64,000 bases of DNA from Vicinamibacterales bacterium (GCA_035537875.1 DATLLJ010000002.1:104283-168282); one strand, 5' to 3'. Shown: positions 527 to 57,332, counted from the first letter of the stretch. Numbers and translations are program-made. Notes: generated by a model from the sequence alone, not told the origin.

Positions 527-1273
527 ATGAAACGCACGGCGCGGCTGCTGCTCGTCCTGGGACTCGCCACTGCGACAACGGTCTCGGCATTCCAGGGATT
601 TCGCGGCGAGCCCTATCCCACCGACGTCGACTACGACGGCCGCTTCACCTTTCTGCGCCTGCGCTGGAAAGTCGGGTCGTTGCGATCAGGGAGCATGACC
701 AGCGCCTGGAATCACGATTATCCGCGGGCCGAGCAGCATCTCGCGCAGATCCTCAAGGAAGTGACGCTGCTCGACGCGCGGACGGACGGCGCCCGCGTTC
801 TGCACCTTGACGATCCCGAGCTGTTCAGGTATCCGATCGCCTACATGTGGGAACCTGGGTTCTGGACCATGACCGACGTGGAAGCCGTGCGGTTCCGCGA
901 GTATTTGCAGAAGGGCGGCTTCGCCATCTTCGATGACTTCGACACGGTCCACTGGACCAATTACGAAACACAGATGCGGCGCATCCTTCCAGAAGCCCAG
1001 TTCGTCGAGCTGGACGAGTCGAGCCCGGTGTTCGATTCGTTCTTTCGGATGGAGACGATCTACTTTCCATCTCCGGGCATGAGCATCAGGCCGACCTATT
1101 ACGGCATCTACGAGGACAACGATCCCACCAAACGATTGATGGTGATCGCCAACTACAATGCCGACGTGGCCGAGTACTGGGAGTGGTCTGCCGAAGGGTT
1201 CTTACCGGTCGACACGTCGAACGAGGCGTACAAGCTGGGAGTGAACTACATGATGTACGGCATGACGCACTAG
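527..1273 (+). CDS. DUF4159 domain-containing secreted protein
   Basis: 248-aa ORF with signal peptide MKRTARLLLVLGLATATTVSA. The motifs WNHDYPRAEQHL and FDDFD...W are typical of DUF4159. Confidence 0.75.
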   Translation: MKRTARLLLVLGLATATTVSAFQGFRGEPYPTDVDYDGRFTFLRLRWKVGSLRSGSMTSAWNHDYPRAEQHLAQILKEVTLLDARTDGARVLHLDDPELFRYPIAYMWEPGFWTMTDVEAVRFREYLQKGGFAIFDDFDTVHWTNYETQMRRILPEAQFVELDESSPVFDSFFRMETIYFPSPGMSIRPTYYGIYEDNDPTKRLMVIANYNADVAEYWEWSAEGFLPVDTSNEAYKLGVNYMMYGMTH

Positions 1274-1281
1274 ATCGATCG

Positions 1282-1339
1282 GCCACGAAATCACGAGAAC
1301 GAAGAGCATTCGCTTGTTTCTCTTTCGTGATTCCGTGGC
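1282..1339. terminator. Long imperfect hairpin between convergent genes (probable bidirectional terminator)
   Basis: GCCACGaAATCACGAGAA...TTCTCTTTCGTGATTcCGTGGC. The arms are complementary apart from small mismatches, and the hairpin lies 9 nt after the DUF4159 stop codon. Confidence 0.5.
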
Positions 1340-1478
1340 TTCGTGGCGGCCCGGTATGAGAGCGCTGCAAACGCTGGGGCTCCGCGCCGCGCGGCTCGTC
1401 GGCCACGCCCTCGTACTGAACCGTCCTCTCGTCTGCCTCCAGCGTCCCGCATGAACTCCAGCAGCGCGGCGGGCGTCA

Positions 1479-2003
1479 TCACCGGCCGGGTGAAAGCTTC
1501 TTCAGCACCTGAATCTGACCGGCGTGGTACAGGTCGTGCGCCGCAACACCGGACAGCAGCGAGACGTTGCTGACCTTGCTGCCCGGTGGGGTCTGTCTCA
1601 GACCCTTGGGCGACAGCCCTTTCACGGCTTCGCGCAGCAGACCGTGCATCTGGTCGAGCAGAAGCCGATCCGACCGCCAGGCCGCTTCGTTCGTCCCGTG
1701 TGGCATCGGCCGCGGAAACCAGTTCGACCCTTTGATCGGAAAGGATCCGCGCGTGCGACCGGTGAGACGACGCCATGCCGCGTACTTCCAGTAGGCGGCG
1801 TGAACGGTGAGTTCCCAGATGTTGTGGCGACCCGGGGCCGGTCGCCACGCCGCCTGCTTCGCGCTCACGCGCCGGATCGAGCCGCGCAGGTTCGTGCCAT
1901 GCCACGACACGTGGTCGTAAGCCTGATCGAGAATCGCCAGGAGGAGGGCCGTCTCGCCGGACGGCGCGGACGCCGACCCAGCCGCCACGGTCGCGCCGCT
2001 CAC
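1479..2003 (-). CDS. DinB family protein
   Basis: ORF 1479..2054. Family features include WHGTNL..., HAAYWKY and a C-terminal HDLYHAGQI. The likely start is GTG at 2003, forming a GTGA overlap with the upstream stop at 2000-2002. Confidence 0.75.
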   Translation of the reverse strand: MSGATVAAGSASAPSGETALLLAILDQAYDHVSWHGTNLRGSIRRVSAKQAAWRPAPGRHNIWELTVHAAYWKYAAWRRLTGRTRGSFPIKGSNWFPRPMPHGTNEAAWRSDRLLLDQMHGLLREAVKGLSPKGLRQTPPGSKVSNVSLLSGVAAHDLYHAGQIQVLKKLSPGR

Positions 2004-2404
2004 GCGGGCAGCTCCTGAGGCTCTGACGTGAGCGTCCGCCACACGATTTTCCACCCGTCCCCGGTTCGGGCGAACACCAGGATGTCGAAGCCCTTCTCAC
2101 TGTAGGTCGTGCCCTCAATCTCGTACACGATACCGAACGGGCAGACCGCGACGGCTGTATCGTCGATCACATCGACGCGGGGCGTACCTGGCGAGAACTG
2201 CGTGGTGTTGGCGACCTCCGAGTACTGACGGAACGAGGCCACGTAAGCGGCGCGGCCCATTACCCGGGCATCCTGCCCCGGTGGCGCCATCACGACGTGG
2301 TCGGCGACGTACTGGCCGATCGCGTCGTAATTTCCCCCACGCCACGCGTCGTTGATCGCCGCCACGATCCGCCGGATTTCACGAACATCTTCCATACGCC
2401 GCAA
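2000..2404 (-). CDS. SnoaL-like / NTF2-fold (DUF4440-like) protein
   Basis: 134 aa. The segment IRRIVAAINDAWRGGNYDAIGQYVADHVVM...GWKIVW is typical of the NTF2-like SnoaL/DUF4440 fold. Confidence 0.7.
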   Translation of the reverse strand: MRRMEDVREIRRIVAAINDAWRGGNYDAIGQYVADHVVMAPPGQDARVMGRAAYVASFRQYSEVANTTQFSPGTPRVDVIDDTAVAVCPFGIVYEIEGTTYSEKGFDILVFARTGDGWKIVWRTLTSEPQELPA

Positions 2405-2426
2405 CCACGGTGGACAGCTCTGAATG

Positions 2427-2466
2427 CGACGAGGGCGGCCCGCACCGAAGAGAGCCGCCCTCGTTG
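2427..2466 (-). terminator. Stem-loop downstream of the 2487 gene
   Basis: ACGAGGGCGGC (2429-2439) pairs perfectly with GCCGCCCTCGT (2454-2464) around a 14-nt loop. It lies 20 nt downstream of the stop at 2487. Confidence 0.55.
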
Positions 2467-2486
2467 TCGATAGGGATGCCGTGAGA

Positions 2487-3113
2487 CTACTTGGCCAACG
2501 CGAGCCCGTCGACCATGACCTCGAGGCGGTGGTTCACGCGGAAACCATAGAGCCCATCGGTCTTGGCCGTCGCGCCGCTCTTCGGGGTGGAATGCACCAC
2601 GGTGCCGTTGACGACGTAGTCAACCTTGTCGGCCTGCACCCGCACTTCGAGCGCGTTGACGGAACTGCCATTGGCCCCGGGCTTCCGCACGGCGGCGTTG
2701 ACGTTCCGGGCGACGTCGTTCGTCGTGGCGTCACCCGCCCGCTGTTTGATGAGATAGCTCCCATCCTGTGCCACCAGGAAATAGATGTAGGTCTGCTGCG
2801 GCCCGTCCAGACTGCTGCCGCCGAACACGAGGCCGTAATAGTTCGTGTGGTCGCTCGGTTTGACGAGCGTGAAGTTCCCTTTCAGCGTGTAGTTTCCCGC
2901 TGCGTTGTTGGCCGGGTTCCAGTACACGGCGGCCTGCGGGTTGATGGCGTGGAACCCGGAGCCCATGGCCATGAACTGAACATTGCCCGCCGCATCAGGA
3001 TCTGACGCGGTGGTGCTCCGATCGATGCGCAGCTTCCAGCCTTTTGTGGTCTGCGCAGCCAGCGGAACCGTGATGAGCAGAGCGATTGCAGCGAAATATG
3101 CGAAACGTTTCAT
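2487..3113 (-). CDS. Secreted ConA/LamG-like jelly-roll protein (DUF1080-like)
   Basis: ORF 2487..3191. The plausible start is MKRFAYFAAIALLITVPLAAQ at 3113 (signal peptide). The body is beta-rich (YGLVFGG...YIYFLV..DGSY...VNGTVVH...GLYGFRVNH). The family assignment is tentative. Confidence 0.55.
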   Translation of the reverse strand: MKRFAYFAAIALLITVPLAAQTTKGWKLRIDRSTTASDPDAAGNVQFMAMGSGFHAINPQAAVYWNPANNAAGNYTLKGNFTLVKPSDHTNYYGLVFGGSSLDGPQQTYIYFLVAQDGSYLIKQRAGDATTNDVARNVNAAVRKPGANGSSVNALEVRVQADKVDYVVNGTVVHSTPKSGATAKTDGLYGFRVNHRLEVMVDGLALAK

Positions 3114-3187
3114 ATCCAAGCTCCTCGGTAACAGATCCATTCGATGATACCCCGTGCCACAAAAGGGGTCGTACCCCTTTTTTCGGT

Positions 3188-3763
3188 TCATGCGGGTGGT
3201 TCCGCGAGTGCCCGCCAGGCCTGTTCCGCCTGCCAGAGGTGGCGATGCTCATGGCGCGGCAGGATCGTCAGCGCGGCAAAGAGGTTGTACTTCAGCCGCG
3301 CGTTGAACGGCGACGGGATCTTGACCCGATCGATCGGCAGACCGTCCGCATTGTTGACGCGAGCGAGCAACTCACGCTGCAGCCGCTCGAATTGGGCAAC
3401 AAGCTCTGTCGGCGCCTCCTCACCTGAGGGCACGAATGCCGCCGTCGTTCTCGTCCGTATCCGCGCCGGCGGCCCCATCGTCTTCCACAGCAGCCACCCC
3501 GCGAGATCCCGATGGAAGCGGCCAGGTGCCGGGCCACCGCTCGTTCGGGCCCGGGCGAGACCGTCGTCCAGCAGCGGCAGGTAGGCGCGCGAGGTCAGGT
3601 TCAGGTGCGCAATGCATTCTGCGACCGACCACCGTGCCGGATCGGGGCGGCGCGACCAGGCCGGCTCGGGAACGTCAGCGATGAGCCAGCGGAGACGGTC
3701 GCTGGCCGCGTCGAACTCGTCACAGATGGCACGAAGCTGCGGATGGAGAGCGGTATCCCCCAC
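3188..3763 (-). CDS. DinB family protein
   Basis: This is the C-terminal 192 codons of ORF 3188..3994. Family features include WSVAECIAHLNLTSRAYL...LPRHEHRHLWQAEQA. The GTG at 3763 overlaps the upstream TAG by 1 nt (TAGTG). The upstream part of the long ORF overlaps the 3763..4578 gene and is not credible. Confidence 0.7.
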   Translation of the reverse strand: MGDTALHPQLRAICDEFDAASDRLRWLIADVPEPAWSRRPDPARWSVAECIAHLNLTSRAYLPLLDDGLARARTSGGPAPGRFHRDLAGWLLWKTMGPPARIRTRTTAAFVPSGEEAPTELVAQFERLQRELLARVNNADGLPIDRVKIPSPFNARLKYNLFAALTILPRHEHRHLWQAEQAWRALAEPPA

Positions 3764-25777: not shown

Positions 25778-25898
25778 CAGTGACCTCCTGGTGCTGTTTC
25801 CCGATGCCGACAAGAGGATACTTCGTGTCTTCACGGCCGAACTCGGCTATCCTCGGGCGTCCCGAATGAGGCCACCCTCGGTTCAGGAGGACCAGTCC

Positions 25899-26369
25899 AT
25901 GAAGAGACTCCTCGCCACTATCGTGTTCGTGTGCATGGGAGTATCCGCCCATACGTACGCGCAGACGCCGACAACGGCTCTGGCGGCCGATCCCGGCCTC
26001 AAGCAGAAGATCCTCGCGCTCGAGGCCAGGCGCATTGCGGCCATGGTGAACAAGGACATGGCCACCCTCGACTCGATTCTTGCCGAAGATCTCACGTACA
26101 CCCATTCCGGTGGACGGACCGATACGAAGGCGGCTTTCATGGCGCTGATCGGCGGCCCGGACAACCGGTATCTGGGTGTGGACTACACGAGCACCGAGGT
26201 CATTCCGACGGGGAACGCGGTGATCGTACGTGGGGTGGCCCAGATCCGCCTCGGCGAAGGCCCGCGAGGGCCAGCCACCAGCTACCCGGTTCTGTTTCTC
26301 GACGTCTATGCGCTGCGAAATGGCGTCTGGCAGATGGTGGCGTGGCAGGCCACTCGTCCCGGCGACTAG
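25899..26369 (+). CDS. Secreted DUF4440/NTF2-like protein
   Basis: The ATG at 25899 follows AGGAGG and gives MKRLLATIVFVCMGVSAHTYAQ. The body has LEARRIAAMVNKDMATLDSILAEDLTYTH...NGVWQMVAWQAT. Confidence 0.7.
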   Translation: MKRLLATIVFVCMGVSAHTYAQTPTTALAADPGLKQKILALEARRIAAMVNKDMATLDSILAEDLTYTHSGGRTDTKAAFMALIGGPDNRYLGVDYTSTEVIPTGNAVIVRGVAQIRLGEGPRGPATSYPVLFLDVYALRNGVWQMVAWQATRPGD

Positions 26370-26413: not shown

Positions 26414-29400
26414 TCAGTTCTGAAGCAGACGGGTCGCGAGACGACCGGAACTGCCCCGCAAGAGCGACTCCCGCACCCGTCGTGAAGCGTCCGATGCGTG
26501 TAATGGCAGGTGAATCTTCGCGGTCATATCGCCGCCCGGTTCGACCGTCATCCACAGGTGGCCGTGACAATCGCTGATGAGCGCCTGAAGCGCGCCGAGG
26601 TCGACTCCGGCTTTGGCCGCTGATTTATCGGGGCTCGGCGTGGTCGGGTTGCCGCGAAGCCCCAGCGGCCCGTCCTGCATCGCCCGCCTGATCTCCTTGA
26701 CCGTGATCAGCGCGTGAGGACCGAGACGGACGTTGGGATGCTTTGCGATGAATTGGCCATCGACGACGATGGTTGCCAGTTCGATCCTCAGTCGGCCACC
26801 GTAGGGCAGGCGCTCCCGGCAGTAACTGGCCAGATTGACGAGGAGTCTTTCGACCCGCTTCGGCTTGACATCCACCTTGAGCAGAGAAGCGGCCCTGGGC
26901 ATTTCGAGCTCGACATCGTCTCCGGCGACGCGCTTCAGAACCGGCTCGAGATCGCGTAAGACCCTGTTCAAATCGACCGGCGGAAGACTGCTGATCTCTT
27001 CGTCCCCGTACACGGCGAGCTGTCGAAGGAAGCTGGCGGCGCGCTTCACCTCATCAAGCACCTGTTGACCTTGCTGCCGCATGGCCGCGTCGGTGTCGAC
27101 AGTCGCCAGCCACTGCTCGACGTCCTGATGGATCTCGTTGAGCAGATTGCCACAGGTGACAGCGACTTCCGACGCCAGCCGTCCGACGGCTTCCATCCGG
27201 TGGGCGTCGCCGAGCCTGTCCTGGAGGGCACGAAGATTCGTCAGATCTTCGGCGACGATCTGGATGAGGTCAGGAGAAGATACGGCTGCCGACAGGCGAA
27301 CGAAGAGGCGGCTTCCATTTCTGTGCTTCCACGTGGTCTCCAGTGATTCCTTCGCGTTCGTGCTCAGGCAGCGCTCGAGCAGATACGACAGGTCCCCCGG
27401 TGATTCGAAGACCGAAGCGGCGAAGCCCGCGCCCCGCAGTTCGTCCGCCTTCCGACAGCCGACCAGGACCTCAAAGGCGCGGTTCGCCTCGATGAGCCCG
27501 CCGTCGCGGGTGCATCGGCAGAGCGGCAGGGGAGAAGTCTCGAACTGCCGACGATTCTCTGTCCGACTGTCATCGAGCCGCTTCTGCAGTTGGGGCACGC
27601 GGTTGGCTTCAGCCTGCAGAACCTCGTGACGGCTTCGAAAGCCATCGAGCTCCTGAATCGTCGCTGTGAGCTTCCCTTTGAGCTGCTCGATTTCCCGGTT
27701 TCGCGTCGCCAGCGTCGTCCGCAAACCGGTCTGAAGCTGGGTCCGCTCGTTCTCTGACGCCTGCAAGGCCGCCGCGTGCCGCGCTGCCTGCTCTTTGAAG
27801 CGAGCGTCACGCTCGCTGACGGAAGCGACCAGCGTCGCCACCGCGACGGCATGCTCGTTCGAGGCCCGATCGAATGCCTGTTGAAGGTCCCTCTGAGCCT
27901 CCAGGTACTGCTGAGCCTCGGCCTTCATGCGTTCTCGAATGGTTTCGACTTCCCCGGTCAACGAATCGCGTTCCAGCGTGAGGCGCTGGAGACGATCGTG
28001 CAGCTCAGCCAGCCGACTCTCCTGGTCACGTCGCTCTCGAGCGATCTCTTCTTCGAGTCGCGACACATGCTCGCGCGCACGCGCGGCGGCGGCTGCGGCC
28101 TCCTCGTGGAGACGCCGTTCGGTCTCAGCTGCGGTGGATCGCGTCTCCGCAACGTTGCGCTCCAACGCTTCGCGCTGTTCGGTTTCCCGAGTAAGCCGCG
28201 CTTCAAGCGCCGAGTACTGCTCTGACGCCGCCGCATGCTCCCGGATGGCGAGCTCGGCGGCTTCCTGGAGTGCGGTCGTCGCCTCGGCCAGCTGCAACTG
28301 GAGCGAATCACGGGTTGCGGCCGTCTCGGCAAGCTGCGATGCAAGCTGCATCTCGCGCTCGCCGGCCGCTTTCAGTTCACCGGTGGCGCGTTCATCCGCT
28401 TCCCTGAGTGCGATCGCCGCCTCGGTCAAGCGCTGCTCGAGGGCCCGGTGAGTTGCGGCCCCATCGGCGAGCTGGGCCGTGAGCTCCGCCTCGCGCATCG
28501 TCAAGCGCTCGACGTCGGCGGTGATCGATTCATGCTTGCGCAGGGTCACCGAGAGAGCCGACGCCAATTCTCGCGCCTGCTCGTCCAGGGCATTTCGTGC
28601 GGTCGCCACCTCGGTCAGCTGCTGATCGAGCGCCTCTCGGGCCGCGGTCGCGTCGGCAAGTCGGGATACGAGGTCCGCTTCACGCGCCTCGGCTGCCTGT
28701 CGCTCGCTGCTGGCGCGTTCGTCTGCTTCTTGGAGCGCGGTCGTCGCCTCCGTGAGCCGCAGATCGAGCGTCTGGCCAGTCGAGGCCGCGTCGGCAAGGT
28801 GGGATGCGAGCTCCGCTTCACGCGCGTCGGCCGCACGCCGTTCGCCCGCGGCGCGCTCGTTCGCTTCTTGGAGCGCGGCCGTCGCCTCCGTCAGCCGCAG
28901 CTCGAGCGTCTGGCGAGTCGAGGCCGACTCGGCAAGGTGGGACGAGAGCTCCGCCTCCCGAAGGGTCAAACGTTCGACGTCGGCCGTGACCGACTCATGG
29001 TTACGGAGAGTTGCCGAGAGAGCCGCCGCCAATTCGCGCGCCTGTTCATCCAGGGAATTTCGTGCGGCCGCTACCTCGGTCAGCTGCTGCTCGAGCGTCT
29101 GCCGGATCTCGGCAGCCTCGGCAAGTTCGGACGAGAGGTCCGCCTGACGCGCAAGAGCTGCCTGTCGTTCCCGCCCGGTGCGCTCGTCCGCTTCCTGGAG
29201 CGCGGCCGTCGCCTCCGTGAGCCGCAGCTCGAACGACTGGCGGGCGTGTATCGCCTCCGACAGCTGCGAGGCGAGTTCCGCCTCCCGCGCCCCGGCGGCC
29301 TGCCGTTCGCGGGTGGCGCGTTCGTTCGCCTCGTGGAGGGCCGTCGTCAACTCCGTCAGTCGCAGCTCGAGCGCCTGCCGGCTCGAGGCCGCGTCGGCAA

Positions 29401-31375
29401 GTTGGGACGAAAGCTCCGCCTCACGCTGCGTCAGGCGCTCGACGTCAGCAGCGGCCGACTCGTGGCTGCTCTGGACCGAGGAGAGGGCCGCCGACAGTTC
29501 GCGCGCCTGCTGCTCAAACGTATCTCGAGCCGCTGCTGCCTCGGTCACACGCTGCTCAAGGACCTGACGGGTGTGAACGGCGTCGGCAAGCTGGGATGCA
29601 AGCTCCGCTTCACGCGCGGCGGCCGCCTCCCGTTCGCTTGTGGCGCGTGCGTGCGCTTCTTCGAGCGCGCTCGTCACATCCATCAGTCGCAGCTCGAGCG
29701 CTTGACGGGCAGCGCCCGCGTCCGCAAGCTGCGAGGCGACGTCCGCCTGTCGCCGCGTTAAACGCTCGACGTCGGCGGTGGCCGACTCGTGGTTGCGCCG
29801 GGCCACGGTGAGGGCCGCCGACAGTTCGCGCGCCTGCTGGTCCAGCGCATGGCGTGCGGTGACCGCCTCGGTCAACTCGGCGTCGAACTGTGCCTGGCGC
29901 TCGGAAAGGGCGGCCGCGGCGCTTGTCATCGCCGACGCATGTCGCTCCTCAAGCTCCCGCAGGGCGATTTCCGTCTGGGCGAGGGTCTGTTCGAGGGCGG
30001 CGCGCGATGCACGCTCCTCACGAACCACCTGGTCGAGCTCCGCCTGTCGCGCGGCGGCCGCCTGCCGTTCGCGGGTTACCCGCTCGTCCGCCTCTGTGAG
30101 CGCCGTCGCCGCTTCCGCCAGCCCCAGTTCGAGCGTCTCGCGAGTGTGGACCGCGTCGGCAAGCTGCGAGGCGAGCTCCGCTTGTCGCGCGGCGGCCGCC
30201 TGCTGTTCGCGGGTTACGCGCTCGTCGGCCTCTGTGAGCGCCGCCGCCGCTTCCGCCAGCCCCAGTTCGAGCGTCTCGCGAGTGTGGACCGCGTCGGCAA
30301 GCTGCGAGGCGAGCTCCGCTTCGCGATGCCTCAGACGCTCGACGTCGGCAATGGCCGTCGCATGGTTCTGCCTGGCCCGGTGCACCTCGATGGCCGCCAC
30401 GCGCAGCTGCTCGTCGATCATGTCCCGCATGGCCGCGGCGCGCGCAATCGCGATGTCGTGCTTCGCCTGACGTTCGGCCAGCTGACTGGCGGCGGCGGTC
30501 AGCGCCGACTGGTGGCGCTGCTCCGCATCCTGAAGTGCGGCCTTGACATCGACGAGCTCCTCCTCGAGGCTGCCGCGCGCCTCGCGCTCCAATTGAACAA
30601 CGCGTTCGAGCTTCGTTTCGCGATCGGCCGCCGCCGACTGTTCGGCTGCCCGGCTCTGTTCACGCTGCCGCAGCAAGGCCTCCACGTCGGCCAGGCGATC
30701 CTGGAGCGCCGACTTACTGCGAACCGCATCGGCCAGCCTCGCGTCCAGTGCCTGCCACTGCGCGAGCCGATCCGCCGCCGGTGAATCCGAGGCTGTCGCC
30801 CGTCTGGCGCGATCGAGCAACGCTTGCACGTCAGCCGGTATAGGTGCGGCGCCGACGCGCGTCGCGCTGGTTCCCGTCGGCCGGAGAGGCTGCGAGGGTT
30901 GCTTTACGTCCAAAGTCTCAACCTTGTGAGTGCGCGCTGGCGCGATCGGCTCCCTGGATGAACGCTCGCGGTCGCCATCGACAGGCGTATGCGCAATCGC
31001 TCGAGTGATGGCCCCCGCAAGAGCGCCGACGTTCTTGGCGGTGTGAACGCCAGCGCCCACGTGGGCCGATTCGAGCTCGAGGCTTGCGCCGTCTGGCGAG
31101 ATGACCACGACCGGGGCAGTGAGCCCAAGGCGCCGAACCTGGGCCAGAAACGCGTTGAAGTTTTCACTGCTGAGCTGGGTTTCCGCGACGACAGCCGCCA
31201 CGTCAGGGTTTTGTTCAATCCGGTGCGTGGCATGGTCGAAGTGAGTGGCCCACAAGACCTTAACCGTTGGCGTTACGCTGTAGAGCGCAGCGGCAACAGC
31301 CTGGGCATCGGTGCGCGCGGTGGCGACATAGAGAATCTTCATGCACTCGGGCGAACTTGTGAGAATTCGCCGCAC
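26414..31375 (-). CDS. Giant coiled-coil signalling-like protein: receiver-like domain, ~1100-aa coiled coil, PAS domain, degenerate histidine-kinase core
   Basis: This is a single 1653-codon ORF; the likely start is MKILYVAT at 31342. Residues 12-130 are CheY-like. Residues ~190-1281 are rich in A/E/R/L/Q, contain almost no Pro or Gly, and include tandem repeats. Residues 1282-1390 are PAS-like. Residues 1391-1415 (HRMEAVGRLASEVAVTCGNLLNEI) are HisKA-like. Residues 1467-1640 are HATPase_c-like (VDLNRVLRDLEPVLKRVAGDDVELE...RLLVNLASYCRERLPYGGRLRIE...). Confidence 0.85.
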   Translation of the reverse strand: MRRILTSSPECMKILYVATARTDAQAVAAALYSVTPTVKVLWATHFDHATHRIEQNPDVAAVVAETQLSSENFNAFLAQVRRLGLTAPVVVISPDGASLELESAHVGAGVHTAKNVGALAGAITRAIAHTPVDGDRERSSREPIAPARTHKVETLDVKQPSQPLRPTGTSATRVGAAPIPADVQALLDRARRATASDSPAADRLAQWQALDARLADAVRSKSALQDRLADVEALLRQREQSRAAEQSAAADRETKLERVVQLEREARGSLEEELVDVKAALQDAEQRHQSALTAAASQLAERQAKHDIAIARAAAMRDMIDEQLRVAAIEVHRARQNHATAIADVERLRHREAELASQLADAVHTRETLELGLAEAAAALTEADERVTREQQAAAARQAELASQLADAVHTRETLELGLAEAATALTEADERVTRERQAAAARQAELDQVVREERASRAALEQTLAQTEIALRELEERHASAMTSAAAALSERQAQFDAELTEAVTARHALDQQARELSAALTVARRNHESATADVERLTRRQADVASQLADAGAARQALELRLMDVTSALEEAHARATSEREAAAAREAELASQLADAVHTRQVLEQRVTEAAAARDTFEQQARELSAALSSVQSSHESAAADVERLTQREAELSSQLADAASSRQALELRLTELTTALHEANERATRERQAAGAREAELASQLSEAIHARQSFELRLTEATAALQEADERTGRERQAALARQADLSSELAEAAEIRQTLEQQLTEVAAARNSLDEQARELAAALSATLRNHESVTADVERLTLREAELSSHLAESASTRQTLELRLTEATAALQEANERAAGERRAADAREAELASHLADAASTGQTLDLRLTEATTALQEADERASSERQAAEAREADLVSRLADATAAREALDQQLTEVATARNALDEQARELASALSVTLRKHESITADVERLTMREAELTAQLADGAATHRALEQRLTEAAIALREADERATGELKAAGEREMQLASQLAETAATRDSLQLQLAEATTALQEAAELAIREHAAASEQYSALEARLTRETEQREALERNVAETRSTAAETERRLHEEAAAAAARAREHVSRLEEEIARERRDQESRLAELHDRLQRLTLERDSLTGEVETIRERMKAEAQQYLEAQRDLQQAFDRASNEHAVAVATLVASVSERDARFKEQAARHAAALQASENERTQLQTGLRTTLATRNREIEQLKGKLTATIQELDGFRSRHEVLQAEANRVPQLQKRLDDSRTENRRQFETSPLPLCRCTRDGGLIEANRAFEVLVGCRKADELRGAGFAASVFESPGDLSYLLERCLSTNAKESLETTWKHRNGSRLFVRLSAAVSSPDLIQIVAEDLTNLRALQDRLGDAHRMEAVGRLASEVAVTCGNLLNEIHQDVEQWLATVDTDAAMRQQGQQVLDEVKRAASFLRQLAVYGDEEISSLPPVDLNRVLRDLEPVLKRVAGDDVELEMPRAASLLKVDVKPKRVERLLVNLASYCRERLPYGGRLRIELATIVVDGQFIAKHPNVRLGPHALITVKEIRRAMQDGPLGLRGNPTTPSPDKSAAKAGVDLGALQALISDCHGHLWMTVEPGGDMTAKIHLPLHASDASRRVRESLLRGSSGRLATRLLQN
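28220..30325 (-). repeat. In-frame tandem repeat array inside the giant gene (138-bp A units, 189-bp B units, 465-bp A-A-B super-repeat)
   Basis: Nine 46-aa A units have the consensus REAELASQLADAxxxRQxLELRLTEATxALQEADERxxRERQAAxA. Three clear 63-aa B units have the consensus RxAxLxSxLAxAxxxRxxLxQQLTEVAxARNxLDEQARELxxALSxTLRxHESxTADVERLTx. The two N-terminal A units (30188-30325 and 30050-30187) differ at only about 4 of 138 nt. Confidence 0.9.
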
Positions 31376-31459
31376 AATGTATCGGCCAGACGCCCGAGTA
31401 GCTGCAATCTTGATCTCGCGGTCACTCCGGCACGAGATGCCGGAGGGGACCTGCGTCCG

Positions 31460-32176
31460 CTAGTTGATGGCCTTGTACAAGCGTTCGTCGAGCGGGCTTC
31501 CGGAAATCGGCTGCAGCTCGTCTCGGTACTGTTTGGTGTGCGCCGCGGCGGCGTGCGCGTCGAGCGCGCTCTGATTCTGCCACGTTTCGATGACCGTGAA
31601 GTGATTGCCGCGCATCGCGTGTTGCAGGACATCGAAGCGCAGGTTCCCGGGCTCCTTGCGGCTTGCCTCGGCCAGGCGGCGAAGCAGCGTCGGGGCGTCA
31701 GCCTTCCCACCCTGAGCGCTCGGGGCAGCGTCGACATGAGCCACGATGTGAACGGCCTGGCCGTCTCCCTGACCGGTCGTCGAACCGACGGTCAGCGTCT
31801 TGTACGGGCGCAGATCGTAGCCGCTCACTCGACCGGGCTGAAGCGCCTCCTGAAACTGCTTTACGTGTGCGGCATCGCGCCGGGCCTCGTACGCGACCTG
31901 ATCCCGCCACGTTTCGACAATCGCGAAATGTCCGGGCCAGCCCACCTGCTCGAACGCGTCCAGTCGCCCGAATCCGGCATCCTTGCTGCTCGCCGTCCGG
32001 TACTGTTTCAGGGCGGCGACCATCGTCGCCCTCGCCGAAGGCGCGATTTCGACATACGCCACGGCGTAGAAAGCACTGTCGCCAGCGACCTGGGCGCGGG
32101 CTGGAACGCCTTGCCCGGCTGCAAGCAGGCTCGCTCCAATGAGGAGGCACATGCGGTGAGGCATCGGAAACTCCAT
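31460..32176 (-). CDS. Tandem ABM (antibiotic biosynthesis monooxygenase-like) domain protein with signal peptide
   Basis: 238 aa with two repeats of the ferredoxin-like ABM pattern (FAIVETWRDQVAYEARRDAAHVKQF and FTVIETWQNQSALDAHAAAAHTKQY). Confidence 0.75.
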   Translation of the reverse strand: MEFPMPHRMCLLIGASLLAAGQGVPARAQVAGDSAFYAVAYVEIAPSARATMVAALKQYRTASSKDAGFGRLDAFEQVGWPGHFAIVETWRDQVAYEARRDAAHVKQFQEALQPGRVSGYDLRPYKTLTVGSTTGQGDGQAVHIVAHVDAAPSAQGGKADAPTLLRRLAEASRKEPGNLRFDVLQHAMRGNHFTVIETWQNQSALDAHAAAAHTKQYRDELQPISGSPLDERLYKAIN

Positions 32177-32691: not shown

Positions 32692-33144
32692 TTACGCTGC
32701 CACCCGCGTACTTTGACTCGCGACACATTGCCATCGGCCGTCACGGAACACGAACACGTCGACGTACCGGAACGTCACCGCCAGCGGCTTCCCCTTGCTG
32801 GGTCCCAGGAGATGCTGCGACATCCAGACGACCGCCGTGTCTCCGTAGATCTTGACGATGAATTCGTCGAGCGTGGACGAATCGATCTGCTGATCGAAGG
32901 TGGCGGCGCGGGACAGCTCTTCGTCGCGGTCGCCGCGGGTCCCGTCGCCGTAGGTCGCGACGAACTCCTCGGCCAGGATTCCCGCGATGAAAGCCACGTC
33001 CCTGCGGCGAAACGCGGCGTCCCAGTCGTGCTCGAGCTGAATGAGAATCTGCTGATCCGACTTCACTGCCGCGGTCTGGCCGCCGGAAACCGTTGCGACG
33101 CATACGGCGGCGAGCAGAGCGACGAGGACCGAGCACCGGATCAT
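32692..33144 (-). CDS. Secreted DUF4440/NTF2-like protein
   Basis: 150 aa with a signal peptide, then ILIQLEHDWDAAFRRRDVAFIAGILAEEF...FRDGRWQCVASQST. Confidence 0.7.
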   Translation of the reverse strand: MIRCSVLVALLAAVCVATVSGGQTAAVKSDQQILIQLEHDWDAAFRRRDVAFIAGILAEEFVATYGDGTRGDRDEELSRAATFDQQIDSSTLDEFIVKIYGDTAVVWMSQHLLGPSKGKPLAVTFRYVDVFVFRDGRWQCVASQSTRVAA

Positions 33145-50452: not shown

Positions 50453-52012
50453 TCAGCGGCCGGCGTCGGGCGGGGCTTCGGCCGCACACGTGAAGCTGGA
50501 CGCGGCGTCAGTGCTGCCGACCCCGTCGTACTTCGCGACCTGGCCAATCGGGCACAGCGGGCGAGTCCGGTCGATTTTGCCAGCGGTGACACGAGACGCC
50601 ACGATCCGGGCCGGCTTCTGCCCGTTCTCGACCCAGTTCGAGATGGCGGCCATCCCGTCGAACGTATCGGGGCCGGGACCGCCGCCGCAGTGCAAGACCC
50701 CCGGCAGCATGAACAGCGCGATCGATTGATCCGCCCCGCTTCCAACGGCCTTCAACACGTTACGGAAATAGATGACGCTGTTCTCGGCGGGCACCTGCGG
50801 GTCGGACCATCCGTGCCACATGAGCAGCTTGCCGCCGCGATCGAAAAACGGCGTGAGGTTGAACTCGTCCGACGCGAGCAGTCCACCGTCTTTCGTGACC
50901 GCCCGCTCGACATCGGCTGCGATGTTGGACAGCCGGAAGTCCCAACGCGGATCTTTCAGATGGAAGTTCCGCACGCGTGAGAGAGAGTTGACGAGAGGCT
51001 CCGGACCGCCCAGTGTTCCCCACTGCAGTTCCGAACCCGGCCAGAGGTGCGCGTCGAGGAGCACCTTTCCAGATGTCGGATCGGTGAACGGCGATGTGAG
51101 CACCACGGCCGATTCAACCTGCGGCGCCGTCAAACACGAAGGACCGTCGGGGCCCTTGCAGAGAAGCGTCGCGTAATCGAATCTGCACTTCGTCGGGTTC
51201 TCGAGAACGCCGTCCTTGACGCCGTCGTCGAGGTCGCAGACCTTCATCACCGCATCGTGAATCATCGGATACTTGCTGGCGGGAATCCGGCTGGCTGGCG
51301 TGCGGTTGACCGTCAGGTTGATGCCGATGCGCGCTGCGTCGAGGCGAGCCTGATTCCACGATGCCGCGCCCGCGACGATACCCTGGAAGTCGTCGGGATA
51401 TCGCTGAGCGCTCGTCAACCCATGTCTGCCGCCGCCAGAGCAGGCGTTGTAGTACGACCACCGCGGCGGGCTCCCGTAAAAGGCGCGGATCACCGCCTTG
51501 CCCGCCAGCGCGAGCTCGTGCGTCGAGCGATACGCGAAGTCGATCAGCTTCTCGGGATGCCCCGGCATGAAATCCGCGTTGTTGCCGGCGTGACCGGTGT
51601 CGGTACCAGCCGTCGCGTACCCCTCTGCCAACGCGGACGCCATGAGTGCATGAGGAATGGCGCCTGCGAGCCCGCCCTCGCCGACTGCCTGAAACCTTCC
51701 GTTCCAGCGCGACTCCGGAAGCCAGACTTCGATATCGATCTCGGAGTCGTTCGACGGCCTCGCGGTGAGCTGGACCAGGCAGAAGGCGGGCAGTTTCAGG
51801 AACGGCTGACGCTGCGCGACGCGATCGGTCGCCGCCCGGTCGGTCGCAGGGTCGAATGACCCCGTCGGCACCATTCGAGCAGCGGTTACGGACGTCGCTG
51901 GAAGCGAAAGCTGCGTCAGGTTCTCGCAGCGCGTGACGCTTTGCGCCAGTGCGGCGCGAGCGACAATCAGCGCGAGAAGCAGCGTCGCGAACGTCACAGA
52001 GCGCGCATGCAT
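50453..52012 (-). CDS. Tannase/feruloyl esterase-family hydrolase (secreted)
   Basis: The ATG at 52012 gives MHARSVTFATLLLALIVARAALAQS. The motifs YYNACSGGGRHGLTSAQRYPDDFQGIVAGAASWN match the family. Confidence 0.8.
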   Translation of the reverse strand: MHARSVTFATLLLALIVARAALAQSVTRCENLTQLSLPATSVTAARMVPTGSFDPATDRAATDRVAQRQPFLKLPAFCLVQLTARPSNDSEIDIEVWLPESRWNGRFQAVGEGGLAGAIPHALMASALAEGYATAGTDTGHAGNNADFMPGHPEKLIDFAYRSTHELALAGKAVIRAFYGSPPRWSYYNACSGGGRHGLTSAQRYPDDFQGIVAGAASWNQARLDAARIGINLTVNRTPASRIPASKYPMIHDAVMKVCDLDDGVKDGVLENPTKCRFDYATLLCKGPDGPSCLTAPQVESAVVLTSPFTDPTSGKVLLDAHLWPGSELQWGTLGGPEPLVNSLSRVRNFHLKDPRWDFRLSNIAADVERAVTKDGGLLASDEFNLTPFFDRGGKLLMWHGWSDPQVPAENSVIYFRNVLKAVGSGADQSIALFMLPGVLHCGGGPGPDTFDGMAAISNWVENGQKPARIVASRVTAGKIDRTRPLCPIGQVAKYDGVGSTDAASSFTCAAEAPPDAGR

Positions 52013-52047
52013 CGCTCCCCCGGAACCGGTTGGAGTAACTCGACCGA

Positions 52048-52554
52048 CTAGACTGCCGCTGCCGGCGCATCCACGCCAGCCCAGAGGTTCATCGTGGTCA
52101 GCTCTTCGCGTCCGCACGCCTTGAGATAGAGGAAGAGCTGTGTACGATACGCGGCGTAGCCGCAGAGCACGACGTTCACGAGAAACGCACCGCGCGAGCT
52201 GGCATTGCCGAACATCGTGATCTCGTCCCGAAAATCGGCGTCGGCGACGTCGTTCAGGAGCCTCGGAAAGGCGTCGGACTGGGCGGCGATCGCGGCCAGC
52301 GTCTGATCGAAATCCATCTTGTCCACCGCCTGCTTGGCTGTGGTCCAGGCAGCGGGATCGAACGTGCCGATCTTGGCCGCCTCTACGAGCGACGGTCCCA
52401 TGATGGTCAGATACTTGAGGAGCTCAATCGTGCTGCGCTGCTTCGATGTCGGGCGATAGTCCAGCTTCGTGCGGTCGATCTTCCCCGCCAGGTGCAGCAG
52501 GATGCGAACTTCCTTTTGGAACGCGCCAATCAGTTCGGCCTTGGTCAGGACCAT
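52048..52554 (-). CDS. Conserved hypothetical helical protein (possibly DinB-like bundle)
   Basis: The ATG at 52554 follows GAGGAA and gives MVLTKAELIGAFQKEVRILLHLAGKIDRTKLDYRP.... The product has 168 aa. The upstream part of ORF 52048..52968 overlaps the VOC gene in another frame. The family call is weak. Confidence 0.5.
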   Translation of the reverse strand: MVLTKAELIGAFQKEVRILLHLAGKIDRTKLDYRPTSKQRSTIELLKYLTIMGPSLVEAAKIGTFDPAAWTTAKQAVDKMDFDQTLAAIAAQSDAFPRLLNDVADADFRDEITMFGNASSRGAFLVNVVLCGYAAYRTQLFLYLKACGREELTTMNLWAGVDAPAAAV

Positions 52555-55661: not shown

Positions 55662-57332
55662 TCACGGCGCCGCGGGCGTGACGCATCTGAAACTTGCCGC
55701 GATGTTCACGTCGCCGGAGCCGTTGTACTTGGGCCAGGCGGGATAGACGCACAGCGGCCGGCTGCGATTACTGCCCTTGTTCGCGTCCACGGCGCTCAAG
55801 GTGCCTGGAGCGTTGCCTCTGTCGACCCACACGTCGAGCGCGCCGAGCGCATCGAACTTGGCGTTGAACACGCCGTTGCCGTGGCCGAATCCCGGAATGT
55901 GGTAGAAGCGCACGAACGAATCGAGCGTCGTCTGGCCGAAGCGGGTGACCAGCCGGTTGTAGTAGTCGAGCGTGTTGTACGGTGTGATCGAATCGTCAAT
56001 CGCGCCGACCATCAGGATCAGCTTGCCGCCCTTGCTCATGAATTGAGTCAGGTCGACGCTGTTCGCGTCGAGGATTGTCGAGACCTCGACGATGCGTGCG
56101 GCCCACTGGTTGGGGTCGAACGTCAGCGTGTTCAGCGTCAGGTTTCTGGTGATGATGTATCGAATCGTCGCATCCGAGGGCCTGTACTGGAACGCGTCCC
56201 CCTGGGCAGGAGGAAACGACGGCGTCGGCGAGTTGCCGAGCGTGTTGGCGAGAAACGTCGCGCCGTCCAGAACGGGCCACTTCGGGAACGTCGTCAGCCC
56301 GCCGGCTACGGGAAACGGGAGCGAGAACGGTGAGTTGATCGCATCGACGGCGGCGAGCTGCGCGTCTGACAGGCACGAATCGCCCGAGTCGCTGCCATCG
56401 GCGCAGCGAAGCCTCGCCCTCACGGCGTCGATCGTGAACACCCTGTTGCACCCCGCCACGTCGCCGATGATGCCGTCCTCGAGCGCGTCCAGCCCGTCAC
56501 AGGCCGAATAGACGGCAGCAACCAGCGTGTTGACCTTGTTGGGGTTGATCCACGATTCTTTCGTCCTGTAGAGCGCTTTCGCAAAGTGGTTCGCGGCAAG
56601 ATGCAGCAATGTCACGTTGTATGCCGGATACAACGAGACGACGCCGTCGAAATCGGCGGGGTACTTCTGCGCGGCGATCAGGGCTTCGTGACCTCCTTGA
56701 GAGCCGCCGATGAAGTACGAGTGTCGGGACGCCATACCGTAGCGCAGGCGAGTCAGGTGGACGCCGACGTCGTGCGTCTTCTTCACCTGGAGGTGGCCGA
56801 AATTGGCCAGCGACTCGGCGTTCAGCGCAAACGTGCCGTCAAACCCCGTGCCCTCGTGTCCCGAGTCGCTGCCGAGGGTGACGTAACCCTGCGCCAGCGG
56901 CGTCGGGGCGGTCGGCACCTGGTTGCTCGCGCCGCCGAGGCCGGTCACGACGGATCCGTCGAACCCGCCGCCGCCCATCTGCAGTGAGCGGTTGTTCCAG
57001 GTGGTCGGAAGATTGATCTGAAACCTGATCGGCGGCGCGAGCGGATCGACAGGGTGAATCGACCCGAGCACCTTGCAGAATTCGCCGTTTGCGTTTCCAG
57101 CCTCGGTCGCGGAGACGAGCGACGCCGCCACGACCACCGCGCCGCCCGTCGGGAGCCCGATGGCTTCACGCGGAATCACCGTGTTCTGAAGGGCAGAACA
57201 CAACTCCCGGGGCGACCGTCCGATCCGTCGATCAGCTGTTTGCGCGAGAGCGACATCCGGGGCGCCGGCTCTCCAGAAGAACAGCGTCGCGCCTGCCAAT
57301 GTCGCCATCGCCAGCCGGGTCGCGGATCTCAT
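55662..57332 (-). CDS. Tannase/feruloyl esterase-family hydrolase (secreted), second paralog
   Basis: 556 aa with a signal peptide. The motif YFIGGSQGGHEALIAAQKYPADFDGVVSLYPAYN matches the family. Confidence 0.8.
   Translation of the reverse strand: MRSATRLAMATLAGATLFFWRAGAPDVALAQTADRRIGRSPRELCSALQNTVIPREAIGLPTGGAVVVAASLVSATEAGNANGEFCKVLGSIHPVDPLAPPIRFQINLPTTWNNRSLQMGGGGFDGSVVTGLGGASNQVPTAPTPLAQGYVTLGSDSGHEGTGFDGTFALNAESLANFGHLQVKKTHDVGVHLTRLRYGMASRHSYFIGGSQGGHEALIAAQKYPADFDGVVSLYPAYNVTLLHLAANHFAKALYRTKESWINPNKVNTLVAAVYSACDGLDALEDGIIGDVAGCNRVFTIDAVRARLRCADGSDSGDSCLSDAQLAAVDAINSPFSLPFPVAGGLTTFPKWPVLDGATFLANTLGNSPTPSFPPAQGDAFQYRPSDATIRYIITRNLTLNTLTFDPNQWAARIVEVSTILDANSVDLTQFMSKGGKLILMVGAIDDSITPYNTLDYYNRLVTRFGQTTLDSFVRFYHIPGFGHGNGVFNAKFDALGALDVWVDRGNAPGTLSAVDANKGSNRSRPLCVYPAWPKYNGSGDVNIAASFRCVTPAAP

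Follow-up and report, generated by a model that had tools for sequence, protein, structure and literature searches.

The window analysed here is a 64,000-nucleotide (nt) stretch from a Vicinamibacterales bacterium (GCA_035537875.1 DATLLJ010000002.1:104283-168282), and its minus strand holds one uninterrupted reading frame of 1653 codons (26414..31375), seen both in the open reading frame (ORF) listing and in translation. The encoded protein joins a receiver-like head to a PAS and histidine-kinase-like end through a coiled-coil stalk of ~1065 amino acids (aa), and in our alignments both signalling ends have lost the residues that define their chemistry. An earlier reading of the window, made from the sequence alone (below, the sequence-only reading), had reported this frame and the order of receiver-like head, giant coiled coil, PAS domain and histidine-kinase-like tail; we confirm the frame as single and open, and the domain order is correct and is kept in at least 129 proteins with the complete architecture. 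At ~66% GC, the odds of 1653 codons without a stop are ~1e-17, as estimated from base composition, and the ORF is a real gene.

The GTG at 31375 that opens the frame mechanically is probably 11 codons too early. The sequence MKILY opens ~58 of the 65 homologs with a detected N-terminal domain and aligns with query residue 12, and we therefore take the ATG at 31342 as the likely start, which would give a protein of 1642 aa. Residue numbers count from the GTG (the 1653-aa version) throughout, even though we prefer the ATG. The highest Kyte-Doolittle average over 19 residues is 1.35 and no transmembrane segment was found in the protein, so we regard it as cytoplasmic. The gene and the features within it are as follows.

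26414..31342, minus strand: coding sequence from the probable ATG start, 1642 aa plus stop (homolog starts, ortholog P0001)
30986..31342, minus strand: pseudo-receiver, residues 12-130, CheY fold (AlphaFold2, Foldseek, profile search, CheY alignment)
31181..31183, minus strand: Glu65 at the phospho-Asp position, inside VVAETQ (31175..31192; CheY alignment)
30806..30985, minus strand: Pro-rich linker between pseudo-receiver and stalk, residues 131-190 (composition, heptad score ~0, poor alignment)
27611..30805, minus strand: coiled-coil stalk, residues 191-1255, ~1065 aa (composition, autocorrelation, register analysis, unit listing)
30034..30321, minus strand: two 138-nt copies, 96% identical, encoding units 352-397 and 398-443 (Tandem Repeats Finder)
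28247..29748, minus strand: DNA tandem array with a 465-nt period and a nested 138-nt period, copies 75-82% identical, encoding 155-aa super-repeats (Tandem Repeats Finder)
27245..27535, minus strand: PAS domain, residues 1281-1377, with a lead-in helix before it and an EDLT junction at its end leading into the DHp helix (TIGR00229, AlphaFold2, Foldseek)
26990..27241, minus strand: DHp-like helical hairpin, residues 1379-1462 (CckA profile alignment, model helices 124-170 and 175-207)
27140..27169, minus strand: H-box remnant EVAVTCGNLL, with Val for the phospho-accepting His, then Thr-Cys (profile alignment)
26501..26971, minus strand: CA-like pseudo-catalytic domain with the HATPase_c fold, residues 1469-1625 (kinase alignment, AlphaFold2, Foldseek)
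26810..26836, minus strand: N-box NLASYCRER, with Tyr for Asn (alignment with canonical kinases)
26720..26740, minus strand: new conserved motif HPNVRxGxH (family form HPNVRxGxHALITV; family alignment)
26678..26707, minus strand: G1 motif, DxGxG changed to EIRRA (alignment with canonical kinases)
26588..26611, minus strand: G2 motif, GTGLGL changed to AGVDLG in the query (alignment with canonical kinases)
26549..26569, minus strand: new conserved motif C(G/H)GHLWM (family alignment)
26417..26500, minus strand: basic C-terminal tail, residues 1626-1653 (tails of 89 family members, low confidence in the structural model)

The two signalling ends

We modelled the N-terminal domain with AlphaFold2 from a 34-sequence alignment and obtained a (beta-alpha)5 fold (predicted local distance difference test score, pLDDT, 84.6; predicted template modelling score, pTM, 0.78). 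Foldseek matches this model to receivers at template modelling (TM) scores of 0.63-0.74, the FrzS receiver and the CikA pseudo-receiver among them, and the family profile of the domain matches solved receivers in the PDB at E 1e-8. The Pfam model PF00072 (Response_reg) is matched by 9 of 34 family N-terminal domains and not by the query N-terminus, whose only Pfam match is the CheY-like OKR_DC_1_N model. When a profile of the N-terminal domain was used to look for other architectures, only short fragments came back.

When 78 family sequences are aligned to CheY, 63 carry Glu and 13 carry Asp at the position of the phospho-accepting Asp57. The acidic-pocket residue Asp12 is replaced by Gly, Ala, Ser or Val and is Asp in none; Thr87 is kept as Thr in two sequences and becomes Val, Ala or Leu in 67; and the Lys109 equivalent is Lys or Arg in 64. 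In the query, Glu65 occupies the phospho site, the Lys109 equivalent is kept, and the first acidic-pocket Asp and the Thr are replaced (the pocket holds Ala or Gly). Judged by these residues, the domain combines the (beta-alpha)5 CheY fold with an incomplete catalytic set (phospho-Asp, acidic pair, Thr/Ser and Lys) and is a pseudo-receiver, not phosphorylatable in most members. What the sequence-only reading called a CheY-like N-terminus thus stands as a fold, backed by model, structure search and profile, and falls as a working domain, given Glu65 and the lost pocket and Thr residues. That reading had also found the N-terminal placement of a receiver odd; in itself it is not, since canonical REC-GAF-PAS-HK-REC kinases are encoded close to homologs of this gene in related genomes.

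At the other end, the AlphaFold2 model of the C-terminal module (residues 1256-1653) has a pLDDT of 76 overall and of ~90 in the PAS core. It consists, in order, of a lead-in helix, the PAS domain, a continuous helix into a two-helix DHp hairpin, an alpha/beta CA-like domain and a disordered basic tail. The PAS domain scores 23.4 bits against TIGR00229 (cut-off 22.9) and 19.5 bits against the Pfam PAS model, under that model's gathering threshold of 22.6. Its fold, a five-stranded antiparallel sheet with flanking helices, is matched by the Haloarcula PAS domain 3bwl (TM 0.73-0.77, root-mean-square deviation 2.7-3.3), and fold and profile match together bear out the PAS-like domain proposed earlier. 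Asp122 and Thr124 of the C-terminal alignment are invariant and correspond to the Asp-x-Thr junction between PAS and DHp. The PAS-kinase junction couples the PAS domain to the DHp helix, and because this junction is invariant in the family, the PAS domain may still modulate DHp conformation.

The Pfam HisKA and HATPase_c models have no match in the query. A profile of the DHp-CA region matches CckA (5idj) at E 5.5e-16; the NCBIfam CckA model is matched at E 1e-18; Foldseek on PAS-DHp-CA returns the LOV kinase YF1 (4gcz, 8a52) at E 1e-15 to 1e-16, and also CckA, LvrB and ZraS; and the CckA CA domain 5idm matches the CA-like model at TM 0.63-0.65. By DHp hairpin, CA fold and detectable homology, the module therefore has the fold of a kinase core.

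Its motifs are those of no working kinase. Compared with two genuine hybrid kinases from the same search (P0089 and P0090), the canonical H-box IAHDFNNML reads VAVTCxxLL in the family, the N-box NLAINARDAMP reads NLASYGRERMP, G1 (DxGxG) reads ExRRA, the F box is lost and G2 (GTGLGL) reads PGVDLG. The alignment to CckA 5idj pairs vAHDFNNLL with the family's vAvtCekLL, residue for residue. The acceptor His is found in none of 207 family sequences (Val in 125, Ala in 22, Leu in 16, Ile in 12, others in the remainder), and the positions that follow it are Thr at His+1 in 197 and Cys at His+2 in 204. Likewise, none of 206 sequences has the N-box Asn (Tyr in 187, Phe in 9) or the G1 Asp (Glu in 172). 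In the model, the CA domain keeps an alpha/beta fold, and model residues 312-335, where the ATP lid would lie, are disordered. The H-box His with its phosphatase motif is thus missing, as are the N, G1, F and G2 motifs for ATP and Mg, and on this basis we identify the C-terminal module as a CckA-type pseudo-kinase, predicted to be unable to accept phosphate or, by its motifs, to bind ATP. For the HisKA/HATPase_c-like module reported earlier, fold and homology are upheld (CckA 5idj, YF1), and a working catalytic module is contradicted by the loss of His, Asn, G1 and G2. As far as aligned residues tell, catalytic loss in both signalling domains holds across the whole family. Because the defining catalytic features of both superfamilies fail, we file the protein as a pseudo-kinase/pseudo-receiver protein.

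The near-invariant Cys after the former His and a Cys-Gly-Gly-His in the CA-like domain might form a redox or metal site.

These residues bear on an alternative in which the protein still works as a sensor, by unconventional chemistry: sensing would fall to the PAS domain, and the near-invariant Cys would act as a redox or metal switch, or phosphorylation would occur elsewhere. The Thr-Cys pair is near-invariant, the Cys-Gly-Gly-His of the CA domain supplies a second conserved site, and the PAS core and EDLT junction are invariant or nearly so, such that PAS-DHp coupling may persist. However, the N, G1, F and G2 ATP motifs are all replaced family-wide, the segment corresponding to the ATP lid comes out disordered in the model, and we recognised no cofactor-binding signature. 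We consider such a sensor improbable.

The protein ends in a basic tail. Across 89 family members the motif R-x(3-4)-R-[WL]-[FL]-x-x lies at the C-terminus and the last 20 residues have a median net charge of +4. The tail recalls short C-terminal targeting peptides. As a membrane anchor it fails to stand out: its helical hydrophobic moment of 0.62 shows no excess over controls (median 0.54, 95th percentile 0.77), and membrane anchoring by the tail is only a guess.

Stalk, repeats and family

Between the two ends, the stalk is rich in Ala (23%), Glu (14%), Leu (12%) and Arg (12%), and residues 186-1255 contain one Pro and 15 Gly. The stalk glycines occupy positions that are alanine in sister repeats, and the sole stalk proline is residue 199. 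The mean heptad register score is 0.50, compared with 0.32 +/- 0.11 for shuffled sequence. The register is stable for 40-120 residues and then shifts, always by +3, which equals a 4-residue stutter, such that a 3.5-residue hydrophobic periodicity is sustained with few helix breakers. Because of the stable registers, the regular +3 shifts and the near absence of Pro and Gly, we read the stalk as a true heptad coiled coil. The Pro/Gly-poor stalk of about 1100 residues in the sequence-only reading is thus confirmed at ~1065 aa, and its extended length, put there at ~150 nm, would be ~158 nm in the query protein at 0.148 nm per residue. The linker that precedes it behaves differently: seven of the nine prolines in residues 141-1275 fall within residues 131-190 and an eighth just beyond, at 199, the heptad score there is near zero, and the segment aligns poorly among homologs. 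It is probably disordered.

The stalk core (~306-1054) is built of ~15 tandem units of 46 or 63 aa, each opening with EAELASQLADA. A 63-aa unit is nine heptads and a 46-aa unit is six heptads plus four residues, and the +3 shift falls at each 46-aa unit. The units are arranged in 155-aa super-repeats (63+46+46), with autocorrelation peaks at 155 and 46 aa. At the DNA level, Tandem Repeats Finder places most repeat copies at 68-82% identity. The 96%-identical pair at 30034..30321 looks like a recent unit duplication and is the only spot where repeat collapse or expansion in the assembly is a realistic worry.

Two antisense ORFs with high GC at third codon positions lie inside the stalk-coding region, one of 508 aa (28235..29761, plus strand) and one of 331 aa (29789..30784, plus strand), and counterparts are present in 54 related loci. 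They look like shadows of Ala/Glu/Leu/Arg codon usage rather than genes, and automated gene calling could wrongly annotate them.

The whole protein, used as query in a word-indexed search, returned 88 clusters of 930-1840 aa, all metagenomic, most of them without Pfam annotation or labelled "chromosome segregation ATPase". Exhaustive searching with HMMER and the C-terminal profile puts family members at 290-621 bits, with a few truncated family fragments at ~246-284 bits; the first canonical multi-PAS kinases, with HDFNN, NARDAM and DxGxG intact, score at most 276 bits, and there are no intermediates. A scan of one genome per species gave 73 loci, nearly all in metagenome-assembled genomes (MAGs) of Vicinamibacterales or "uncultured Acidobacteriota"; four contigs of 1.9-15 kb among them are binned elsewhere, and at least two MAGs carry two copies. 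We found no description of this family in the literature, and the sequence-only reading had likewise not recognised the architecture; our literature search was incomplete, and its silence is no proof. Outside the window, the C-terminal search space also includes P0181, an extreme PAS array: this 4799-aa metagenomic protein has ~30 tandem PAS-like domains that match the family PAS profile, and it is unrelated to the stalk proteins.

Identity to homologs is 53-86% in PAS-DHp-CA, 41-72% in the N-terminal domain and 37-61% in the stalk. The replacement residues are near-invariant, new motifs are conserved, and PAS-DHp-CA is the best-conserved part of the protein; for these reasons, we take the alignments to show selection rather than decay, namely purifying selection for some non-catalytic function.

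The stalk itself is far more variable. In the 129 complete proteins, the spacer from the N-terminal domain to the PAS lead-in helix measures 1-1332 aa (median 695, query 1124), and in P0178 the pseudo-receiver is joined directly to the PAS-pseudo-kinase module. Repeat periods are lineage-specific (46, 50, 85, 99/100, 103, 134, 146, 149/150, 155 and 173 aa), and since they differ by lineage, the stalks grew by independent tandem duplications of a linker helix. The sequence-only reading had proposed a structural, ruler or scaffold role. With spacers from ~0 to 1332 aa and lineage-specific periods, we rejected a fixed ruler, and a ruler of defined length is unlikely; a structural role that transmits no signal is better grounded, because catalytic residues are lost family-wide in both two-component domains.

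The same data weigh on a second alternative, an SMC- or Rad50-like protein that folds back on itself as an antiparallel intramolecular coiled coil, with a composite pseudo-receiver/pseudo-kinase head and a rod of ~75 nm. The stalk does have weak NCBIfam matches to SMC and an archaeal SMC-related protein, and since the receiver already adjoins PAS-DHp in the stalk-less member, folding back would keep that ancestral contact. Those matches, however, reach 26-29 bits against cut-offs of 300-729 and cover coiled coil only, without an ATPase head; there is no mid-stalk hinge or break, the sole stalk proline being at 199; one-directional tandem growth with lineage-specific periods would require compensating changes in both arms of an antiparallel pair; and the pre-PAS helix and DHp of homologous kinases form parallel dimers (4gcz). 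A folded-back rod therefore strikes us as quite unlikely. Membership of the SMC/Rad50/MukB group was rejected for the protein as a whole: the SMC models score 26-29 bits (cut-offs 567-729) on the stalk only, the ends have receiver and kinase folds, and a hinge is lacking.

Neighbourhood and synteny

The gene lies in a 63-70% GC chromosomal stretch rich in hydrolases and other metabolic enzymes. Two features border it directly.

25791..26369, plus strand: convergent DUF4440 gene, 44 nt downstream (ORF listing)
31425..31445, minus strand: perfect 8-bp GC-rich hairpin CTCCGGCA-TCTCG-TGCCGGAG just past the ABM stop codon, without a T-run (read from the sequence)

Upstream on the same strand, an ABM gene ends at 31460, leaving a gap of 84 nt to the GTG or 117 nt to the ATG. 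The hairpin just past its stop codon was not called by the terminator scan; it may separate the ABM transcript from that of the large gene. Scans of both gene ends found neither a sigma-70-type promoter nor a canonical terminator, results that are uninformative for Acidobacteriota. Of the flanks described earlier, the convergent gene and short 5' spacer are as stated; monocistronic transcription is plausible but less secure, with ABM on the same strand and only a hairpin lacking a T-run between the two. No tRNA genes and no Rfam matches were found in the window.

The closest homolog is an ortholog of 1617 aa, P0001, from an independent Joint Genome Institute (JGI) assembly, with 72% identity in the N-terminal domain and 79-86% in PAS, DHp and CA. 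Its locus has the same order: DUF4440, glyoxalase, ABM, the gene, convergent DUF4440, gluconate dehydrogenase subunit 3, GMC oxidoreductase and amidohydrolase. The same gene order in an independent assembly rules out a chimeric ORF. DUF4440/SnoaL-like paralogs at 25791..26369 (plus strand) and 32692..33144 (minus strand) flank the large gene in the window, and because the same pair flanks the ortholog in L074, the glyoxalase/ABM block is syntenic between the two genomes.

The possibility that the gene is an artefact of mis-assembled repeats or a dead kinase pseudogene drifting neutrally is largely refuted. The stalk DNA is repetitive, with one 138-nt pair at 96% identity, and the exact protein sequence is not on record in the public collection. 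On the other side, an independently assembled syntenic ortholog has the same architecture, 129 complete family members exist, the dead domains are the best conserved and their replacement residues near-invariant, and the frame stays open over 4.9 kb with homologous domains in the same frame at both ends. The concern about assembly that accompanied the sequence-only reading, tested against the ortholog and the mostly 68-82% identical repeat copies, revealed no artefact, and we give an artefact or pseudogene very little credence.

In related genomes we noted a canonical REC-GAF-PAS-HisKA-HATPase-REC hybrid kinase near the family gene, at 724..3648 (plus strand) of L020, with similar ORFs in L042, L045, L049, L051, L067 and L072. 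It lies 0.15-4 kb upstream of the family gene in six of these seven loci (measured in all but L072) and is absent from the query window. Its H-box is the intact counterpart of the pseudo-kinase motif, and the kinase might be related to the ancestor, or might be a partner.

Elsewhere in the window, two tannase/feruloyl-esterase paralogs (50453..52117 and 55662..57332, both minus strand) lie 3.5 kb apart among sulfatase, beta-lactamase-fold and amidohydrolase genes, in what looks like a neighbourhood for degradation of soil polymers or aromatic compounds.

Proposed role and significance

We favour a reading, with a probability of roughly 55%, in which the protein is a cytoplasmic, non-enzymatic spacer, tether or scaffold with partner-binding ends and no phosphate relay. 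Function and the binding role of the ends are proposed here by analogy. The ancestor would have been a REC-PAS-histidine-kinase protein whose C-terminal module kept the CckA-type fold and dimer-forming DHp helices, minus the phospho-His and the ATP/Mg residues, while tandem duplication of 46- and 63-aa heptad units would have lengthened the connecting helix to ~1065 residues. The DHp bundle and PAS dimer would nucleate a parallel two-stranded coiled coil of ~150-160 nm at 0.148 nm per residue. Two strands in parallel are the simplest arrangement, because homologous PAS-DHp kinases (4gcz) are parallel dimers with paired N-terminal helices. Two pseudo-receiver heads would hang from the distal tip on the flexible Pro-rich linker. 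The pseudo-kinase end would bind a response regulator or kinase partner, possibly gated by PAS, the pseudo-receiver end would bind another partner, and the protein would hold the two at a lineage-specific distance.

Both ends have precedents. FrzS, a pseudo-receiver followed by a coiled coil, provides one for non-catalytic scaffolding (PMC1974792), and a FrzS-type pseudo-receiver can serve as a protein-binding surface (PMC1974792, PMC12632262). For the kinase end, DivL is a His-less kinase with a non-catalytic role (PMC4211667), and PsmA of the Streptomyces polarisome is a pseudokinase (PMC12963549).

We compared the family with these systems. FrzS and AglZ, motility scaffolds of Myxococcus xanthus, resemble it in having an unphosphorylatable N-terminal receiver fold followed by a long dimerising coiled coil, and the FrzS receiver is among the fold matches of the N-terminal model (TM 0.65-0.70). 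However, its structures (2gkg and 2nt4) rank only 42nd and 49th of the fold matches at 19-21% identity, the level of generic receivers; FrzS is not in the best 60 sequence-profile matches of the family N-terminal domain; and the conserved Glu at the phospho site is the family's own feature. FrzS and AglZ come from another phylum and end in coiled coil, and neither is known to carry a PAS or pseudo-kinase module. We therefore rejected membership of the FrzS/AglZ group: there is no specific homology, and the C-terminal PAS-pseudo-kinase has no FrzS counterpart.

DivL of Caulobacter and PsmA of Streptomyces share with the family a kinase-fold DHp-CA that lacks the phospho-accepting His and carries out no phosphotransfer (PMC4211667, PMC12963549). 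In PsmA the ATP-binding motifs are degenerate too, and the protein works together with coiled-coil proteins at the cell pole (PMC12963549). A stalk of 400-1300 aa and an N-terminal pseudo-receiver are, however, absent from both; according to the DivL literature, DivL retains an ATP-binding CA domain, and in PsmA the receiver is C-terminal. DivL and PsmA are independent inactivations, homologous to the family only at the level of the kinase superfamily. The closest true homology is to CckA-type PAS histidine kinases, including Acidobacteriota REC-GAF-PAS-HK-REC hybrids, which share the overall fold, the PAS-DHp junction and, at the start of DHp alpha-1, the sequence RMEAVGRLA; the family differs from them in replacing the His, the N-box Asn, G1, F and G2 and in inserting the giant coiled coil. 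Scy, FilP, crescentin and SMC arms are like the stalk in their hundreds of heptad residues, periodic discontinuities, tandem units and scarcity of Pro and Gly, but have no sequence relationship to it beyond coiled-coil composition and no ends derived from two-component proteins. In architecture the protein recalls FrzS/AglZ at one end and DivL/PsmA at the other, without a specific relationship to any of them.

A further alternative is head-to-tail polymerisation. Here the Glu pseudo-receiver would mimic a phosphorylated receiver and dock on the His-less DHp of another dimer, as DivK~P does on DivL, building cytoskeleton-like filaments or a lattice. Several observations fit: both dead halves of a cognate two-component pair are retained in one protein family-wide; pseudo-receivers commonly carry Glu at the Asp position as a phosphomimetic (PMC12632262); DHp alpha-1 around the former H-box, the usual receiver-docking site, is highly conserved; and DivL reads a receiver through exactly that DHp surface (PMC4211667). 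A covariation analysis of low power, using mutual information with average product correction (APC) over 140 non-redundant sequences (effective number 122), gave no inter-domain pair that stands out: the highest of them came 22nd, and the leading pairs are spread out instead of clustering on receiver alpha-1 and DHp alpha-1. Moreover, the stalk-less P0178 places the head beside its own DHp, so that contact within one protein fits at least as well. We hold polymerisation to be unlikely, if somewhat less so than the folded-back rod. Equally speculative is a wider version, in which a bacterial cytoskeletal or tethering element arose from a fossil two-component pair: the Glu pseudo-receiver would meet the His-less DHp, either in its own rod or in a second one, PAS would gate the contact, and the fast-evolving stalk would set the length of the mesh or tether.

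Several points count against our preferred reading of a non-enzymatic tether or scaffold. Spacer length varies widely, near zero included, and since some members have almost no spacer, long reach is not essential to the core function of the family. The parallel-dimer geometry would rest on analogy with solved kinases. Because 13 of the 78 aligned N-terminal domains retain Asp at the phospho site, residual phosphorylation may be possible in some members. All-against-all ORF clustering over 10 kb on each side of the 73 loci revealed no conserved neighbour: the recurring ones are phylum-abundant families at variable positions (Ser/Thr kinases with TPR, FtsX/MacB permeases, histidine kinases), and the biggest "neighbour" cluster consists of the antisense shadow ORFs inside the stalk. 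Compared across 64 loci, the neighbourhood is not conserved beyond close relatives, and no partner can be read from context. Finally, there is no cultured strain among the 73 species-level loci.

Pseudo two-component scaffolds are known in principle, and so are the component parts; the novelty lies in how these are combined, in the size of the stalk, in double inactivation throughout the family and in the restricted taxonomic range. In this family both two-component partners are retained, conservedly inactivated, in a single polypeptide, with an expandable coiled coil of up to ~200 nm between them, making it a clean natural case of signalling domains re-used as structural or binding modules. 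It joins the literature on pseudo-receivers (FrzS, AglZ) to that on pseudo-kinases (DivL, PsmA). A family definition would correct annotations that are now blank or read "chromosome segregation ATPase". Vicinamibacterales are abundant soil Acidobacteriota, for the most part uncultured, about whose cell biology next to nothing is known, and a conserved, probably rod-shaped protein of 1000-1800 aa provides a handle on how their cells are organised.

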